DNA from: Methanobacteriota archaeon
GTDB lineage: Archaea > Thermoplasmatota > Poseidoniia > Poseidoniales > Poseidoniaceae
Reading direction: 5' to 3'
Length of the DNA stretch: 64,000 bases
NCBI GenBank assembly: GCA_002720275.1
Contig: PBHR01000023.1
Span: forward strand, 21,600 to 85,599
Every line of letters starts with the position of its first letter. Within the stretch, counting starts at the first letter, position 1. The position numbers and the translations under genes were made by a program. The notes beneath the pieces were generated by a model that worked only from the letters and a program-made list of their open reading frames with translations, was not told the DNA's origin and ran no database searches. Shown in pieces: positions 4,718 to 62,159 of this stretch.

Positions 4718-5386
4718 TTATTCTTTAGTAAAATAGAATAATTGATTATAATTTTTTAATTCGAAATCAGTACATTTTAATTCATTAATATTTTTCCAAA
4801 TTTCAAACCTTGAACTAATTAATGGTAAATGATAATACCTAGACACCTTTGAAGAATCCGGTAAAGTCCAAGAAACCCAAACTACATCTTCGTTTTCTTC
4901 ATCAAGATCTCCATTGATAACTGAAGGTGCCGAAGGGTCCCAACATGAAATCAAAATCTTACCCTCCTTTTTTGTGACTCTTGAAAATTCATTTAAAGCA
5001 ATTTTATTCAAATCAAACGGCAAATGATGCAATACTGCTATAGAGATTATTGCATCAAATTCATCATCTAAAAATTGTAAATCACACACATCAGAAACAA
5101 AAATATTTTCTCCAGGCCTACCAAGTTCTTTCTCCGCCTCAATAGTTGCATTTACCATACTCACAGAAATGTCAATTGCTGAAACTTCGAATCCTAAATC
5201 AGTTGCTAACCTAACATGCCTTCCATTTCCACATCCAGCAATTAATAATTTCAATGGTTTTTTTAAATTATCAGAGGCAAATCCCTTTAACCAATCAACA
5301 ACGAAATCCCATGTGCTTGTACGTTTTTTCCCAAAATCAGAACCTATGGAGTCATAAGCAAATTTGACTGATTTTCTTGGGTCCAT
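4718..5386 (-). CDS. class I SAM-dependent methyltransferase, Trm9-like (tRNA wobble-uridine methyl-esterification type)
   Basis: Contains GCGNG (SAM motif I), FDAIISIAVLHH, ILISCW and RYYHL. These are colinear with the yeast Trm9 pattern (Y..I...F...R...W, GCGNGK, ISIAVVHH, LIYCWA, RYYHL) as I recall it. Confidence 0.65.
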   Translation of the reverse strand: MDPRKSVKFAYDSIGSDFGKKRTSTWDFVVDWLKGFASDNLKKPLKLLIAGCGNGRHVRLATDLGFEVSAIDISVSMVNATIEAEKELGRPGENIFVSDVCDLQFLDDEFDAIISIAVLHHLPFDLNKIALNEFSRVTKKEGKILISCWDPSAPSVINGDLDEENEDVVWVSWTLPDSSKVSRYYHLPLISSRFEIWKNINELKCTDFELKNYNQLFYFTKE

Positions 5387-5444: not shown

Positions 5445-5487
5445 AAAATTATTCAATTGGAATATTAATTTCCCAATTGGAAAATTC
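5445..5487 (+). promoter_or_regulatory. composite CAATTG element, copy A (two CAATTG boxes 20 bp apart around ATTAATT)
   Basis: Sequence is aaaattattCAATTGgaatATTAATTtccCAATTGgaaaattc, with boxes at 5454-5459 and 5474-5479. It is near-identical in architecture to copies at 37902-37944 and 55843-55885, and lies ~120 bp upstream of the Roadblock gene. Confidence 0.6.
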
Positions 5488-9378: not shown

Positions 9379-10571
9379 TATTCTTCTTGAACTGGTGAAT
9401 TATCAATAGGCCTTTTTTGGTATAATGATTCTATTACACCACTAATTCTTTGCCATGGTAGAATATACCTTAATCCCGCTAACAATAATAAGAATAATAA
9501 TGCAGAGATTACCAAACCATAAGTTAATTCTAATTCAATTGACTCTTGAATCTGATAAGCCCACTGACCATCTCCTGGCAATGCAGCAACAATAGACAAT
9601 AATAGAGTATGGAAACCTAAGGCGATTATTGTTGTGATTCCACAAAGAGTCATTAATGCAATAGTTTGTATCATATGCCCATTTAACAAATTATAAAATT
9701 GTGTAACGTATTCTGGATCCTTTTTACAAGTTTCTGGTAATCTAAATGCATATTCAAGATAACGAATAACCCCCATAGAGGACTCTTGGAAAATTATCAG
9801 CAATAATGAAAGTTGTAAAAGACTAAACTGATTAGGGCTAATTAATCCCAAAATTGTAGGTTCCCCTGCCAAAGAGGGTATTTTCTTTAATCCGCCACTT
9901 GAAGCTGCAAATAATAAATCTTCAACGACTTGGAACGTTAATAATGCATGTAAAATTAAAAATAATAACATAATGCCAGTTGACCAAGCAATAGCACCTT
10001 TAGAAAGACCCCAAATCCCTCGAATTCCCATTACTAAAGGTATAATGTATATTCCAATCAAAATAATTTCTAATACAACTATAACGCCCTTGAATAGAGA
10101 CTCTACTGATTCATCTGGAGGAATCCACCAGTCTCCTTTACCAAAATTAGCAAATAACCATTTCATCAAAAAGGGGCCAAATAGCCACAATACAAATGCC
10201 AATAATAAACCTAAACGAATCCTACGTTGAATAATCGGATTTTGAAATGTTAATGCAGCCATCCCTCCACCAATTATAACACTCAAAACCATTATTGGAT
10301 AAAATCTGCCAAGACCGTTTGCTTCTTCACCTGTTAGCCATGCTGGTAACGGCATTTCCAAATTGGCTGAGGTTAATTGTTTATCAAAAAATTCAATTGC
10401 CATGGCATGATCTATTGAATCTACAATATACAAGTCTACCATTTTCAGATACATCCAAAGTAATGCAATCGTACTAATTAATTGTAAAGTTACTACTTGC
10501 CATTGTATTCTTAATAACCTCAAATGTAACGTTCGCATTCCTTCTTGTTGAGGTTGTACATCATCTGCCAT
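9375..10571 (-). CDS. polytopic integral membrane protein, unknown function
   Basis: Contains many hydrophobic segments. GAGGTGAT lies 5 nt upstream of the ATG, immediately downstream of the DUF58 gene, which suggests operon coupling. Confidence 0.7.
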   Translation of the reverse strand: MADDVQPQQEGMRTLHLRLLRIQWQVVTLQLISTIALLWMYLKMVDLYIVDSIDHAMAIEFFDKQLTSANLEMPLPAWLTGEEANGLGRFYPIMVLSVIIGGGMAALTFQNPIIQRRIRLGLLLAFVLWLFGPFLMKWLFANFGKGDWWIPPDESVESLFKGVIVVLEIILIGIYIIPLVMGIRGIWGLSKGAIAWSTGIMLLFLILHALLTFQVVEDLLFAASSGGLKKIPSLAGEPTILGLISPNQFSLLQLSLLLIIFQESSMGVIRYLEYAFRLPETCKKDPEYVTQFYNLLNGHMIQTIALMTLCGITTIIALGFHTLLLSIVAALPGDGQWAYQIQESIELELTYGLVISALLFLLLLAGLRYILPWQRISGVIESLYQKRPIDNSPVQEEY

Positions 10572-21402: not shown

Positions 21403-21672
21403 CTAATCTTGGTGTTCAATACCTTGTTTCTTAACATTAGCTTTCCAAACCATATCTGGTAACCAATCTGGACCATTTGCTGGCTTAGGCACTTGTTTTC
21501 TTTCGCCTGTGAAAACGTGTATACGTTTTGTTCCACGTTCTCTTAAACGAATGTCAATCTTTCCTCTAGAAGCCGCTTTTAAAGCAGCACCACGAGGTTG
21601 CGCACTTGCAAACACTTGACTTGTGTCTGCTCCTCCTTCCATTAGTACGAAGTACTTCTTGTTTTTTGCCAT
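21403..21672 (-). CDS. chromosomal protein MC1 family (non-histone archaeal chromatin protein)
   Basis: The 89-aa protein MAKNKKYFVLMEGG...QPRGAALKAASRG...IRLRERGTKRIHVF...PDWLP is colinear with Methanosarcina MC1 as I recall it (RNFVLR...QPRQAALKAANRG...IRLRERGTKKVHVF...PDWMP). The upstream 70 codons of the track ORF are rejected. Confidence 0.8.
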   Translation of the reverse strand: MAKNKKYFVLMEGGADTSQVFASAQPRGAALKAASRGKIDIRLRERGTKRIHVFTGERKQVPKPANGPDWLPDMVWKANVKKQGIEHQD

Positions 21673-21705
21673 GAGATATTCCTCGCTGGCACTCAAACAA
21701 AGGAC

Positions 21706-21713
21706 TTTATAAA
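21706..21713 (-). promoter_or_regulatory. candidate TATA box for the MC1 gene
   Basis: TTTATAAA lies 33 nt upstream of the MC1 ATG. The sequence is palindromic, so its orientation is not informative. Confidence 0.35.
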
Positions 21714-21850
21714 GTAATCTGTAAAAAAAGGGATACTGTAGCCTATTTTCAACATGTTTCAGAGTTACGGATACCCTTGAATTATGACTTGTATTACCGA
21801 AGTCAATATGTAGGACGGCCTCACCTCCGAGGTCTGTGGCAGAATTACTA

Positions 21851-22453
21851 ATGAAGCGGACTTGCAAAAATGGAATTCTCAAAGTCTTTTATGGGGACCT
21901 ATCAAAACACGAGGCTGACTTAATCGCTACTCCTTCAGATAATAGACTATCTGGGAGAGAAGGAATAGATGCAAAAGTGTATGACGTTGCTGGTGAAGAA
22001 TTAAGAGAAGCATGTAAAGAAATTGCAATAGAACAAAGAAAATTAAATTTATCTCCTTGCCCAGTATCTTCTGCAAAATTTAACAATTCGTTTAACCTCA
22101 AATCGAAATATTTGTTGCATGTTGTAAGTCCTGATTGTAGACGTCCAGTACAAGATCAAAATAGAAGAGAACTATTACCAAAAACATATGAATCTATGTT
22201 TTCAGCAATTCAAAGTAAAAAAGATGTGAAAATAGTAGCTGCAGCACCATTTTCAATGGATATTTTTTCTTATCCTCATAGAGAGGGGGCGAAAATGACT
22301 TTCAGTTTACTACTAGAATGGCTAAATAGTGAAGAATGTAATATTGAGGAATATCACATGATCGTATTGAACAAGAATTTTATTGATGCCATGCGCACAG
22401 TGTATAGAGAAACCGAAGATCAACTTCCAGGAAGAGATACTACAGATGAATAA
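21851..22453 (+). CDS. macro domain protein (ADP-ribose binding/hydrolase-like)
   Basis: VFYGDLSKHEADLIATPSDNRLSGREGIDAKVYDVAGEELREAC matches the macro-domain pattern GDIT...DAIVNAAN..L.GGGGVD.AI..AAG..L..EC. ATG 21851 is preferred to the track's GTG 21836. Confidence 0.6.
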   Translation: MKRTCKNGILKVFYGDLSKHEADLIATPSDNRLSGREGIDAKVYDVAGEELREACKEIAIEQRKLNLSPCPVSSAKFNNSFNLKSKYLLHVVSPDCRRPVQDQNRRELLPKTYESMFSAIQSKKDVKIVAAAPFSMDIFSYPHREGAKMTFSLLLEWLNSEECNIEEYHMIVLNKNFIDAMRTVYRETEDQLPGRDTTDE

Positions 22454-36497: not shown

Positions 36498-36827
36498 ATG
36501 GCCAGTGTCACCGTTATAAAATTGACTAGCGAGAAACATAAAGACGTTGATGAGGTTTGTACTCACATCAAGGCTATTTGTGATAATGCAGGTGTTGCTA
36601 TGAGAGGTCCTATACCACTACCAACACGTAGATTGGTAGTGCCATGTAGGAAATCACCAGATGGCGAAGGATGTGAAACATATGATCATTGGGAAATACG
36701 CATCCACAAAAGACTTCTAGAAGTTAAATTGGCTACAAATAAAGATGAAGTCGCTCTAAGACAAATTGCAAGAATTGCCATTCCTGATTCAGTAAGTATA
36801 GAATTAGCAATGAGAAGTGTTGTTTAG
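36498..36827 (+). CDS. rps10: 30S ribosomal protein S10 (uS10)
   Basis: Contains GPIPLPTRRL and DHWEIRIHKRL motifs. AGGTGA lies 7 nt upstream of ATG 36498 (the track uses TTG 36492). Confidence 0.9.
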   Translation: MASVTVIKLTSEKHKDVDEVCTHIKAICDNAGVAMRGPIPLPTRRLVVPCRKSPDGEGCETYDHWEIRIHKRLLEVKLATNKDEVALRQIARIAIPDSVSIELAMRSVV

Positions 36828-37726
36828 AGTTCTGCTAATTCTGCAAAACCTAAATCAATTAGCATATTAGCAAATGCTTCATCAAGTTGATGAATATCTC
36901 CAATTGTTAATATTAATTCTTTACCATCTGAATCTAAAAAAGGTTCTTCATCATCCTTAATTATTCTAATTCTTAAAATAGATTTGATTTCTGAATTTTG
37001 AACATCGTTATCAAGAGATTGTATAGATTGTTCTATTAAAGGTTCAGAAAAATTTTCTGCATTGGCTATTCTTTCTTCATCATCCTCGAAATCATCCATA
37101 ATTTCTTGTTCAGTTTCTGTTTCAACAAAAAATAATTCGGGTGCACCATCTTTAGTAAACTTTTCATCAATAAAATCGTCAAGTTGTGTAGTTCCCACTG
37201 GTACTTTAAGATCCTCATTATCAAAATTACCTAAAACACCAAATTGAATTTTTTCCCAATTAATTTCAGATTTAAACTTACGAATCAAATCCTCAACTTG
37301 TAAATAAAATGCCCTCTCATTTGAATCGTGTTTACCCCAATCCATAGATTCGATTCCTTGAAATTTGATTATTCCATCCCCGGGAAAGGGATTTGCATTA
37401 AATAAATTAGTAGTGGAATGTTCTAACATTGAAACTAAACGCTTTCTAGCTAATTCTGAGGCTGCTCTACGAATATTTGATTGTCTTTTAGCGGCAGCCT
37501 GAGTACGTAAACTCCAACCTTCAGCTTTACCTAATCGATTTACTTCTACTTCTAAAAAATTACACAACTCTGAAATTTTTTCCCAAAAGTCTTTTCGCGG
37601 AAGAGATACTGGACCACTTCTATTTATTTGTCTACGTAATACTGCATGAAGTTCTTCTTCGATTTGCTTAGCTAAATTAGCATCGATAGAATTGTCCATC
37701 TGCTCGTCTCCCCCCATGTCTGCCAA
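36824..37726 (-). CDS. acidic hypothetical protein (helical N-terminal half, D/E-rich C-terminal half)
   Basis: A clean ORF starting at TTG 37726 or ATG 37717. The N-terminal helical region is only vaguely GINS/Sld5-like, which is not enough to name it. Confidence 0.45.
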   Translation of the reverse strand: MADMGGDEQMDNSIDANLAKQIEEELHAVLRRQINRSGPVSLPRKDFWEKISELCNFLEVEVNRLGKAEGWSLRTQAAAKRQSNIRRAASELARKRLVSMLEHSTTNLFNANPFPGDGIIKFQGIESMDWGKHDSNERAFYLQVEDLIRKFKSEINWEKIQFGVLGNFDNEDLKVPVGTTQLDDFIDEKFTKDGAPELFFVETETEQEIMDDFEDDEERIANAENFSEPLIEQSIQSLDNDVQNSEIKSILRIRIIKDDEEPFLDSDGKELILTIGDIHQLDEAFANMLIDLGFAELAEL

Positions 37727-37806: not shown

Positions 37807-37888
37807 GCCGAGGTAGGAAAGCGGTCAACTCCGGGGGATTCAAGATCCTCTCCCTAGCGGTTCGCAGGTTCGAATCCTGCCCTCGGCA
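37807..37888 (+). tRNA. tRNA-Leu (anticodon CAA)
   Basis: Folded by hand. The acceptor is GCCGAGG/CCTCGGC, the anticodon stem GGGGA/TCCTC with loop TTCAAGA, and the T arm GCAGG-TTCGAAT-CCTGC, with a 13-nt variable arm (class II). CCA is not fully encoded. Confidence 0.85.
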
Positions 37889-37901
37889 CCTTTAAATTAA
37901 T

Positions 37902-37944
37902 AAAAAAATTCAATTGCAAAATTAATTTTTCAATTAGAAAATTT
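37902..37944 (+). promoter_or_regulatory. composite CAATTG element, copy B
   Basis: Sequence is aaaaaaattCAATTGcaaaATTAATTtttCAATTAgaaaattt, with boxes at 37911-37916 and 37931-37936 (20-bp spacing). It lies ~60 bp upstream of the P-type ATPase GTG. Confidence 0.6.
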
Positions 37945-38004
37945 CCAAAGGTAAACACCACTAATACAGAGAATTATTAATGATATGATTGTAGTGGGAG
38001 TTAT

Positions 38005-41019: not shown

Positions 41020-41050
41020 CGACCATTTGATATATCTCAATAGTTTACCT

Positions 41051-41554
41051 ATGTTCAAGGTTGATATGTCAAAGATACGTGGTGATCCAAAACAAATTGC
41101 TCTAGCACATCCTACACGTGCAGCAATGTACAATATTTTGTGTTCAAAAGAAGAAATGGCTACTGTCGAATTAGAAAAAGAAATTAAAGTTACAAGATAC
41201 CACCTTTATCATCATTTAAAACAATTACAAGAAGCAGGATTAGTTGAAAATCACAGAGATCAAGGTAGAGCTAAATTTTGGAAAGTTATAGAAAAAATTG
41301 ATACTCCAAAAATTTCTTCTAGTAAATCTACAATTTCAAACGAGGCGATTTGGATTAATCAAATCCCCTCTGAAATTATTAAATTATTAGAAAGTGGAGG
41401 AGAATTGAAATTTATTCCAATTAGTTCTTCTGCTGTAGATGCAATTAATGCAAAAAATGCAATAAATTCAATTGCTAAAGAATTTGGAATAGATTTAGAT
41501 TTACCATTTACTTTTGTCCCAGGGGGCATAATTATAGTTTCCAAAGGGCGTTAG
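41051..41554 (+). CDS. ArsR/SmtB-family winged-helix transcriptional regulator with a C-terminal extension
   Basis: ALAHPTRAAMYNIL...ATVELEKEIKVTRYHLYHHLKQLQEAGLV matches the ArsR HTH pattern. The start is ambiguous (TTG 41027, ATG 41051 or ATG 41066). Confidence 0.75.
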   Translation: MFKVDMSKIRGDPKQIALAHPTRAAMYNILCSKEEMATVELEKEIKVTRYHLYHHLKQLQEAGLVENHRDQGRAKFWKVIEKIDTPKISSSKSTISNEAIWINQIPSEIIKLLESGGELKFIPISSSAVDAINAKNAINSIAKEFGIDLDLPFTFVPGGIIIVSKGR

Positions 41555-55592: not shown

Positions 55593-55842
55593 CCCTTTCC
55601 TTTTTCTCCTTAGCGCGGTCTTTAATCAATACAGTATATATACTATACGTAATAATCAATATTTAATTATACAATTAGAATACTTTAGAAAAATAAATGA
55701 TTTCAATTGAAAAATCTAATTTTTTGGCCGATAATAATAGTAAATATAAATTAATTTTGGAAGCCTATTTTTGTGCGATAATAAATAATTTTTCAATTGG
55801 GGTAATCATAAATAATATATGAAAAAAGAATGGTTGATTATT

Positions 55843-55885
55843 TAAATTTTTCAATTGAAAAATTAATTATTCAATTAGTTTTTTA
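55843..55885 (+). promoter_or_regulatory. composite CAATTG element, copy C
   Basis: Sequence is aaatttttCAATTGaaaaATTAATTattCAATTAgttttttaa-type, with boxes at 55852-55857 and 55872-55877 (20-bp spacing). Single or partial boxes also occur at 55672-55677, 55704-55709 and 55794-55799 in the same spacer. Confidence 0.6.
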
Positions 55886-55975
55886 AATAAATAAAGTGCT
55901 ACGAAAAAAGTCAAATCCAAAGAGGGAATTATTGATGTGCATCTTTTTAGTCGGTAGGTTTGCCGAGGGCGTTAT

Positions 55976-61523: not shown

Positions 61524-62159
61524 CTAATGACAGGATACCCCATATTTTTTCAAACGCCAGTAGTTGTATGGCCATGGAGTCAAGAATCCCGCAATCAACA
61601 TTGGAATGATTACTTCCGGCGTCAACATTGCACCGCCTGTCAACACAAAATCGGTAATGTTCATAGCTGCTTCCATCGCTACCATCGAAATAAATGACAT
61701 ACCCATTGCAGTTCGCAATGAATCTTTGAAAGGAAGCTGTTTGAGCAAAATTACGGTTTCTAAAGCAATGGAAGTAAGGAGACCATTCATGATCGCAAGC
61801 ATCATTATCGCCATAGTAGACCATCCTGAATCAATCCAAATAAATTGGAAAAAAGCGATTGTCCCGAAGTCCCCAATGCTACAACCAATTAAGCACCATT
61901 TTGTATTATGAGCGCTTTGTTTCCATACAGCTTTATCGGACCAATCAAAACCACTTTTTCCAATTGAAAATCCGGATAAAGCAACTATTTCTTCTAAATT
62001 TGAAGTTGTAATTTCTTCAGAATGCTCAATTTTGGCTATTCTTGAAACGTGTGATACTTCAGCCTTACTTATCCCACTTTCTTTCAAAAAATTATCAGTA
62101 AGTCTTGAAGAACAACCCCCACAAGTCATCCCATCTACAAATAATTCCGTGGTTGCCAT
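61524..62159 (-). CDS. HMA (MTCxxC) metal-binding domain fused to a DUF4396-like membrane domain
   Basis: The N-terminus reads FVDGMTCGGCSSRL. The membrane part contains WCLIGCSIGDFG, typical of DUF4396. Confidence 0.7.
   Translation of the reverse strand: MATTELFVDGMTCGGCSSRLTDNFLKESGISKAEVSHVSRIAKIEHSEEITTSNLEEIVALSGFSIGKSGFDWSDKAVWKQSAHNTKWCLIGCSIGDFGTIAFFQFIWIDSGWSTMAIMMLAIMNGLLTSIALETVILLKQLPFKDSLRTAMGMSFISMVAMEAAMNITDFVLTGGAMLTPEVIIPMLIAGFLTPWPYNYWRLKKYGVSCH

Follow-up and report, generated by a model that had tools for sequence, protein, structure and literature searches.

A paired CAATTG palindrome of Poseidoniales archaea in spacers, genes and viral contigs

Three copies of a paired palindrome

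Three spacers in a 64,000-nucleotide stretch of the genome of a Marine Group II archaeon (order Poseidoniales, family Poseidoniaceae; GenBank assembly GCA_002720275.1, contig PBHR01000023.1, C23:21600-85599 in the contig numbering used here) carry the same DNA element, a pair of CAATTG-type boxes set exactly 20 bp apart around the sequence ATTAATT. That whole stretch is referred to below as the window; the assembly that was searched around it (1.8 Mb in 53 contigs, 34% G+C, 82% complete) is labeled G000, with G000-G007 denoting the genomes of the host's genus and other G numbers those of relatives. Copy A (5445-5487, with CAATTG at 5454-5459 and at 5474-5479) lies in the divergent spacer between a methyltransferase gene (4718-5386, minus strand) and the Roadblock operon (from 5604, plus strand). 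Copy B (37902-37944, with CAATTG at 37911-37916 and CAATTA at 37931-37936) has a tRNA-Leu(CAA) gene (37807-37890, plus strand) directly upstream, beginning 20 bp past it and ending 69 bp short of the GTG start of an HMA P-type ATPase gene. Copy C (55843-55885, with CAATTG at 55852-55857 and CAATTA at 55872-55877) forms the distal end of an array of boxes in the 383-bp divergent spacer between a tandem PRC-barrel-like gene and a class-III aminotransferase gene, the subtype of the latter being uncertain. The next plus-strand start codon is 125, 69 and 99 bp away from copies A, B and C, respectively. The original prediction, which was made from the window alone, had placed the three copies at these positions, with ATTAATT between the boxes, 20-bp spacing and plus-strand gene starts 60-125 bp downstream, and inspection of the sequence bears it out on each of these counts.

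Chance and base composition are ruled out as the source of the element by shuffling, by a gap in the distribution of mismatches and by controls that returned nothing. The pattern CAATTG-N14-CAATTR has five matches in the window against 0.10 expected, and none of 100 dinucleotide shuffles reaches five; the matches are the three copies (copy A counted on each strand) and a chance occurrence of CAATTG-N14-CAATTA inside a coding sequence at 10374-10399 (minus strand), which does not fit the inner consensus and is not a member of the set. The 1.8-Mb assembly contains five sites with at most four mismatches to a 30-bp consensus and none with five or six, the background setting in at seven. Besides the three window copies, these are a site in a spacer at C8:1700, with a GatD/asparaginase-like gene on one side and a PccB-type carboxyltransferase gene on the other, and one at C30:4247, inside an RsmB/F-like methyltransferase gene. 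The reversed pattern, serving as control, has no match in any of the ~190 genomes searched. The original prediction had named a frequency no higher than AT-rich composition would give as an outcome damaging to itself; the element is far more frequent than that. Single boxes add little in G000: all five matches to the 18-bp box at one mismatch or fewer fall within the five paired sites, and at two mismatches there are 11 matches against 0-10 in controls, a weak enrichment in an AT-rich genome. In the GC-richer relative G018, single 10-bp boxes number 38 against one in the control and are found over the whole chromosome.

Pooling 77 site sequences from G000 and its relatives defines the anatomy of the element. 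Its core is a 26-bp palindrome, CAATTGrAAAATyrATTTTyCAATTG, in which the CAATTG boxes are essentially invariant. The flanks, which were no part of the search pattern, echo the inner arms (A at a frequency of 0.88 at position -5, T at 0.88 at position +32, and A/T-rich sequence between); since these outer arms are conserved even though they lie outside the query, the true unit is an 18-bp palindrome, ATTTTyCAATTGrAAAAT (ATTTTYCAATTGRAAAAT), present twice. Two such units separated by a 2-bp spacer make up 38 bp in all, with their centers 20 bp, or about two helical turns, apart. The predicted composite of ~43 bp and the claim that each box is the core of a palindrome agree with these measurements. 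The copies do align in one orientation, as had also been proposed, but this carries little meaning because the whole element is a near-perfect palindrome, and the three copies are given no strand.

Conservation in the order and on viral contigs

The element is confined to the order Poseidoniales. In a sample of the phylum it is present in 16 of 25 Poseidoniales genomes and in none of 126 genomes outside the order; a looser pattern finds it in all eight genomes of the host's genus (G000-G007) and, beyond the genus, in many more genera of the same family and in one further family. Sites orthologous to copy A occur in G001 (L035), G016 (L061) and G018 (L010), sites orthologous to copy B in six genomes of the genus and in G026, G034 and G040, and paired sites orthologous to copy C throughout the genus, with degenerate boxes at that place in most other genera. 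The conservation of all three copies in orthologous spacers argues that the element is real. The CAATTG cores and the 20-bp spacing are kept there, and loss of spacing and core in orthologous spacers had been named beforehand as grounds for abandoning the idea. A search of the literature on CAATTG in archaea and on Marine Group II transcription-factor motifs found no description of the element, which the original prediction, too, did not recognize as a described archaeal motif; it is apparently undescribed.

The spacer between the tRNA-Leu and ATPase genes illustrates how narrowly conservation is focused. When it is aligned across six genomes of the genus, only two islands stand out, the element itself, which follows the tRNA-Leu gene at a distance of 19-24 bp in the six, and a block with the consensus GAAwTATTmATG (GAATTATTAATG at 37970-37981 of the window, plus strand) located about 25-30 bp before the GTG or ATG start of the ATPase gene. 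This block is probably a TATA-type promoter core, from which an mRNA with a short leader or none at all would arise. A similar sequence, GGAATTATTGATG, is found at 55926-55938, before the aminotransferase gene. Two other features of this neighborhood may be recorded here. A 300-amino acid acidic protein encoded at 36824-37726 (minus strand), for which no Pfam or NCBIfam match was found, is a constant neighbor of the tRNA-Leu gene and copy B in the genus, at 66-93% identity; and at 61524-62159 (minus strand), ~20 kb downstream of the HMA P-type ATPase operon, an HMA domain is fused to DUF4396.

Copy C belongs to a more elaborate setting. Among the intergenic regions of at least 150 bp in this genome, its spacer (55593-55975) has the most boxes and the highest A+T content (0.76), and it includes the single palindromes ATTTCAATTGAAAAAT at 55704 and TTTTCAATTGGGG at 55794 (within 55700-55800). 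The 200-amino acid protein encoded on its minus-strand side (P0001, 54990-55592) was assigned its tandem PRC-barrel-like fold by inspection, there being no Pfam or NCBIfam match; among 41 genomes of the order, 40 encode it, with identities of 48-99%. The box array upstream of its gene is likewise conserved, with three to seven CAATTG boxes in each of 30 loci from relatives (L091-L120). In several genera the first box of the PRC-barrel spacer is, by eye, ~25 bp from a TATATATA block, and outside the genus this spacer also bears a second repeated motif, (T)GTCGCATAAT, often between boxes that are 32-33 bp apart.

Viruses carry the element as well. In IMG/VR the strict palindrome is found on four contigs and a looser form on 23; about 11 of these, some of them 77-101 kb long, combine element-like sequence with little similarity to the host and with many additional CAATTG boxes, the densest case having up to 18 boxes in 14 kb at 50% G+C. 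Magrovirus-like contigs (L028-L031, L079, L084-L090) have the paired element together with a 3-5-fold excess of CAATTG. In one viral group the site follows the gene for the primase large subunit, in a module whose other genes include those for a nuclease, a DNA methylase and an ERCC4 nuclease. When the examined pieces of host and box-rich viral contigs were compared, replication proteins and a DNA methylase were common to them, and no small DNA-binding protein was.

Sites inside genes and between genes

Some copies lie inside genes. In uvrB of the relatives a paired site is located ~130-200 bp after the start, and several genera have a second one ~185 bp before the stop, so that the two bracket the gene at a separation of about 2.04-2.24 kb (loci L057, L060, L062, L049 and L070). 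In G003-G007 a third site is found in the geranylgeranyl reductase gene, ~1.37 kb from the N-terminal uvrB site; uvrB itself was not found by tblastn in the 82%-complete G000 assembly. Across 18 genomes, the nine codons of the first uvrB site (encoding AIEKLISQL) have a synonymous-codon identity of 0.82 vs. 0.40 in 106 other conserved columns, and this window ranks highest among 109 sliding windows, while the adjacent and absolutely conserved Walker A motif scores only 0.12-0.47. The site in the RsmB-like gene gives the same picture within the genus (0.88 vs. 0.61) and stays invariant where the stretch of protein around it varies. Further intragenic sites lie in geranylgeranyl reductase, PPTase and Mur-ligase-like genes. 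The freezing of synonymous codons under these sites establishes that selection acts on the DNA itself.

Classification of ~70 sites in 25 genomes by their flanking open reading frames (ORFs) yields ~12 distinct intergenic loci. Two are divergent (those of copies A and C), five are tandem (tRNA-Leu/ATPase, GatD/PccB, formyltransferase-like/SDR, carboxyltransferase/enoyl-CoA hydratase, and giant protein/PPTase) and five are convergent (UbiA-like/YjeF, an orthologue of C39_26392/SLOG protein, SerRS/BCCP, PIN/TatA, and one more). The suggestion of a shared promoter module, linked to the starts of plus-strand genes, does not survive this survey: 5 of ~12 loci are convergent, and other sites are inside uvrB, RsmB-like, geranylgeranyl reductase, PPTase and Mur-ligase-like genes. 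Promoter-side distances do recur at some copies, at the ATPase gene, at the gene divergent from the Roadblock operon and in the PRC-barrel spacer. In most genomes 59-69 bp separate the end of the element from the ATPase start (36 bp in one), and copy A is 62-80 bp from the divergent gene in three genera vs. 125-226 bp from the Roadblock gene. Some copies, then, have the appearance of upstream operators, and others that of sites within genes or at gene ends. Acyl-CoA and lipid genes are also loosely overrepresented next to the sites, which may be due to chance: two carboxyltransferases, BCCP, enoyl-CoA hydratase, two SDRs, PPTase, geranylgeranyl reductase and a UbiA-like protein (L052, L064, L059, L001, L017; C8:1700).

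Candidate functions of the element

The element is real, conserved at the level of DNA, confined to its order, paired, and not a hairpin. Almost certainly it docks a sequence-specific DNA-binding protein; that protein, the oligomer that it forms and the way it affects transcription are what we infer. The copies would be high-affinity docking sites for a putative Poseidoniales-specific protein, and, with unit centers about two turns apart and hence on the same face of the helix, could be occupied cooperatively by two dimers or by one tetramer or hexamer. This protein would act at an operator or activator site ~60-100 bp upstream of start codons in the case of the three window copies and the PccB site; where a site is intragenic or lies between convergent gene ends, the protein would serve as a roadblock or boundary. 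To the proposition that the docking protein controls transcription, acting at some promoters from an upstream operator and at the remaining sites as a roadblock or boundary, we assign a probability of roughly 0.55. The dimer-of-dimers operator of the original prediction survives in part: the two-palindrome layout fits it, and the sole link to plus-strand gene starts is not supported.

Known operators resemble the element in part. The ARG boxes of bacteria are 18-bp AT-rich palindromes, 2-3 bp apart, that are bound cooperatively by one hexameric ArgR. A pair of ARG boxes is the closest formal analogue of the element, which likewise comprises two 18-bp AT-rich palindromes with a short spacer (centers 20-21 bp apart in the ARG boxes). 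The likeness has its limits: the ARG-box motif is TGAAT..ATTCA, that of the element is TTYCAATTGRAA; the element's host is an archaeal order; and the element has intragenic and convergent-end sites and is without a link to arginine genes, its neighbors being the P-type ATPase, the Roadblock operon, the aminotransferase, PccB, uvrB and others, with no arginine-metabolism promoter among them (no search was made for an ArgR homologue). The roadblock operators of CcpA (cre), CodY and PurR resemble the element in being intragenic palindromes that constrain synonymous codons; they are bacterial and their regulators are known, whereas the element is archaeal and its protein putative.

Several observations weigh against control of transcription as the function of the element. 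Convergent loci make up 5 of ~12 intergenic loci, vs. ~11% of the intergenic space of G000 (binomial p ~0.008), and convergent gene ends have no promoter on which the protein could act. At the PccB site the fixed point is the upstream stop codon and not the downstream start: the site lies ~5-7 bp past the stop in four genomes and overlaps it in a fifth, while its distance to the PccB start varies between 25 and 73 bp. The distance from the copy B element to the TATA-like block is also variable among relatives (21-36 bp). The flanking genes are without a clear functional theme, the paired sites are clustered regionally in a way that a simple regulon does not predict, and no binder emerged from the ORF scan of the window, from the comparison of hosts and viruses, or from consideration of ArsR- and BirA-type proteins. 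The Pfam scan of small ORFs in the window returned the MC1 chromatin protein, Hjc, ArsC and others, and no convincing linked regulator. The ORF with the MC1 non-histone chromosomal protein domain (21403-21882, minus strand; Pfam E 1e-26) has ~75 extra N-terminal residues. A BirA-type biotin repressor was considered on account of the genes for PccB, another carboxyltransferase, BCCP and a class-III aminotransferase that flank sites, and was rejected: the sole biotin-protein ligase of G000 has a methyltransferase-like N-terminus in which no helix-turn-helix was seen on reading. The ligase domain is part of a 494-amino acid ORF (C34:15030-16511) whose N-terminal half is HemK/PrmC-type methyltransferase-like, with a GCGTG motif.

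The regional clustering is also the starting point for a different reading, in which the element is a chromosome-organization site of the parS/ParB, matS/MatP or insulator type, at which a structural protein organizes, segregates or insulates a domain and whose sites viruses copy. In the complete genome of G018 (2.064 Mb), the most permissive pattern for two boxes, YAATTR-N14-YAATTR, finds four sites only, all of them at 1.857-1.970 Mb, which puts them 27-140 kb away from the main orc1/cdc6 gene (1.8295 Mb); the probability of such clustering for four random points is ~6.6e-4. Four of the five sites of G013 are on the contig that bears orc1, and clusters are likewise seen in G016 (three sites within 63 kb), G040 (three within 35 kb), G026 (four within ~40 kb) and G000 (three of five within 50 kb). 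For parS and matS it is usual to find sites inside genes and between convergent ones, paired sites are present on viral contigs too, and, like the element, parS and matS are few, strong palindromes, indifferent to coding context and gathered in one region near an initiator gene. The cluster, however, is largely one stretch of conserved synteny, made up of the Roadblock operon, SerRS, the ATPase, the PRC-barrel spacer and uvrB and extending over 100-130 kb near orc1/cdc6; as a single region inherited across the order, it counts as approximately one observation. Other conserved sites (PccB, SDR, RsmB-like) are on other contigs, the single boxes of G018 are spread chromosome-wide, some copies have a reproducible promoter-proximal geometry that sets them apart from parS and matS, and no ParB-, ParA-, SegAB- or kleisin-like gene was seen among ~60 proteins encoded beside the sites, a scan that was not exhaustive and did not extend to the whole proteome. 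A search for the origin in G018 by GC skew, AT skew and strand bias (40 samples of 20 kb) gave no clear switch. A role of the parS, matS or insulator type is rather unlikely; the broader proposition, that these are no ordinary operators and instead boundary or chromosome-organizing sites of an archaeal system not yet described, whose protein insulates transcription units and/or organizes or segregates the orc1/cdc6-side domain and into which magroviruses plug, is a tentative possibility and still an outside one.

In another reading the element would derive from the archaeal origin recognition box (ORB), bound by an Orc1/Cdc6 paralogue either at an unrecognized origin in the PRC-barrel spacer or genome-wide, as a regulator like Sulfolobus Orc1-2 with its damage regulon. 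The lead comes from sequence: the box TTCCAATTGGAA, with its TTCC...GGAA dyad core, resembles the Pyrococcus mini-ORB TTCCAGTGGAA, which has invariant TTCC and GAA cores (PMC1904270), and there, too, ~30 mini-ORBs are dispersed and a cluster of ORBs lies within the dp1 coding sequence (PMC1904270). Two Orc1/Cdc6 genes are present in every genome tested, the PRC-barrel spacer is the most box-rich and AT-rich of its genome, and viral copies sit within a replication module. The geometry speaks otherwise: the element has an even center (AATT) and ORBs, whose dyad core is TTCCA-N-TGGAA beside a G-rich element, an odd one, implying a different spacing of half-sites; the element lacks the G-string; and Orc1 binds an asymmetric ORB as a monomer, whereas the element is fully symmetric and paired. 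ORB arrays flank an AT-rich unwinding region in a long spacer, as a rule next to orc1/cdc6, and neither orc1/cdc6 gene of G000 adjoins a box array or a long spacer. We regard an ORB derivative as doubtful. Two further readings are more improbable still. The ATPase operon encodes a 175-amino acid ArsR/SmtB-family winged helix-turn-helix protein (41027-41554, plus strand) that had been put forward as a candidate regulator, and the 26-bp core of the element is a 12-2-12 inverted repeat, as in classical metal-responsive operators of this family; a paired site precedes the HMA-ATPase/ArsR-like operon in G000, G001, G003, G005, G006, G007, G026, G034 and G040. Yet the gene is absent (E<=1e-3) from G009, G013, G020 and G024 (both genomes each of g3 and g7), three of which retain sites (five in G013, at least two in G024, two in G009); G016 and G018 have the gene and no paired site near it; and most sites are unconnected with metal genes. 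The ArsR-family protein is thus an unlikely binder, and an operator of this type carries very little of our credence. Equally little goes to a purely structural element, such as an RNA or DNA hairpin, a bidirectional terminator, or an mRNA-stabilizing palindrome of the repetitive extragenic palindromic (REP) kind at 3' ends. Many sites are 0-36 bp past stop codons and between convergent genes, T4-T5 runs are present on both strands of the element, and the first T5 run after the tRNA falls in copy B. At 16 of 17 symmetric position pairs, however, complementary pairs are at or below the expectation for independent columns; this want of compensatory variation makes a hairpin unlikely and fits a protein that reads each half-site. 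The invariance of the CAATTG cores is not required by a stem, sites occur in essential coding sequences and in divergent promoter spacers without an upstream gene (copies A and C), the copy number is low, and an Rfam scan of the window matched only two tRNAs and nothing at the element.

Few microbes of the surface ocean are as abundant as the Marine Group II archaea, yet none of these has been grown in culture, and their gene control and chromosome organization are almost wholly uncharted. The element presents them with a sharply defined DNA signal that is order-wide, shared with viruses and strong enough to dictate codons in essential genes, and its 38-bp duplex is a concrete handle for fishing out the protein that binds it. 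If that protein is a global regulator, the list of sites gives Marine Group II a first regulon; if it is a boundary or organizing factor, it would represent a new kind of archaeal chromosome system.

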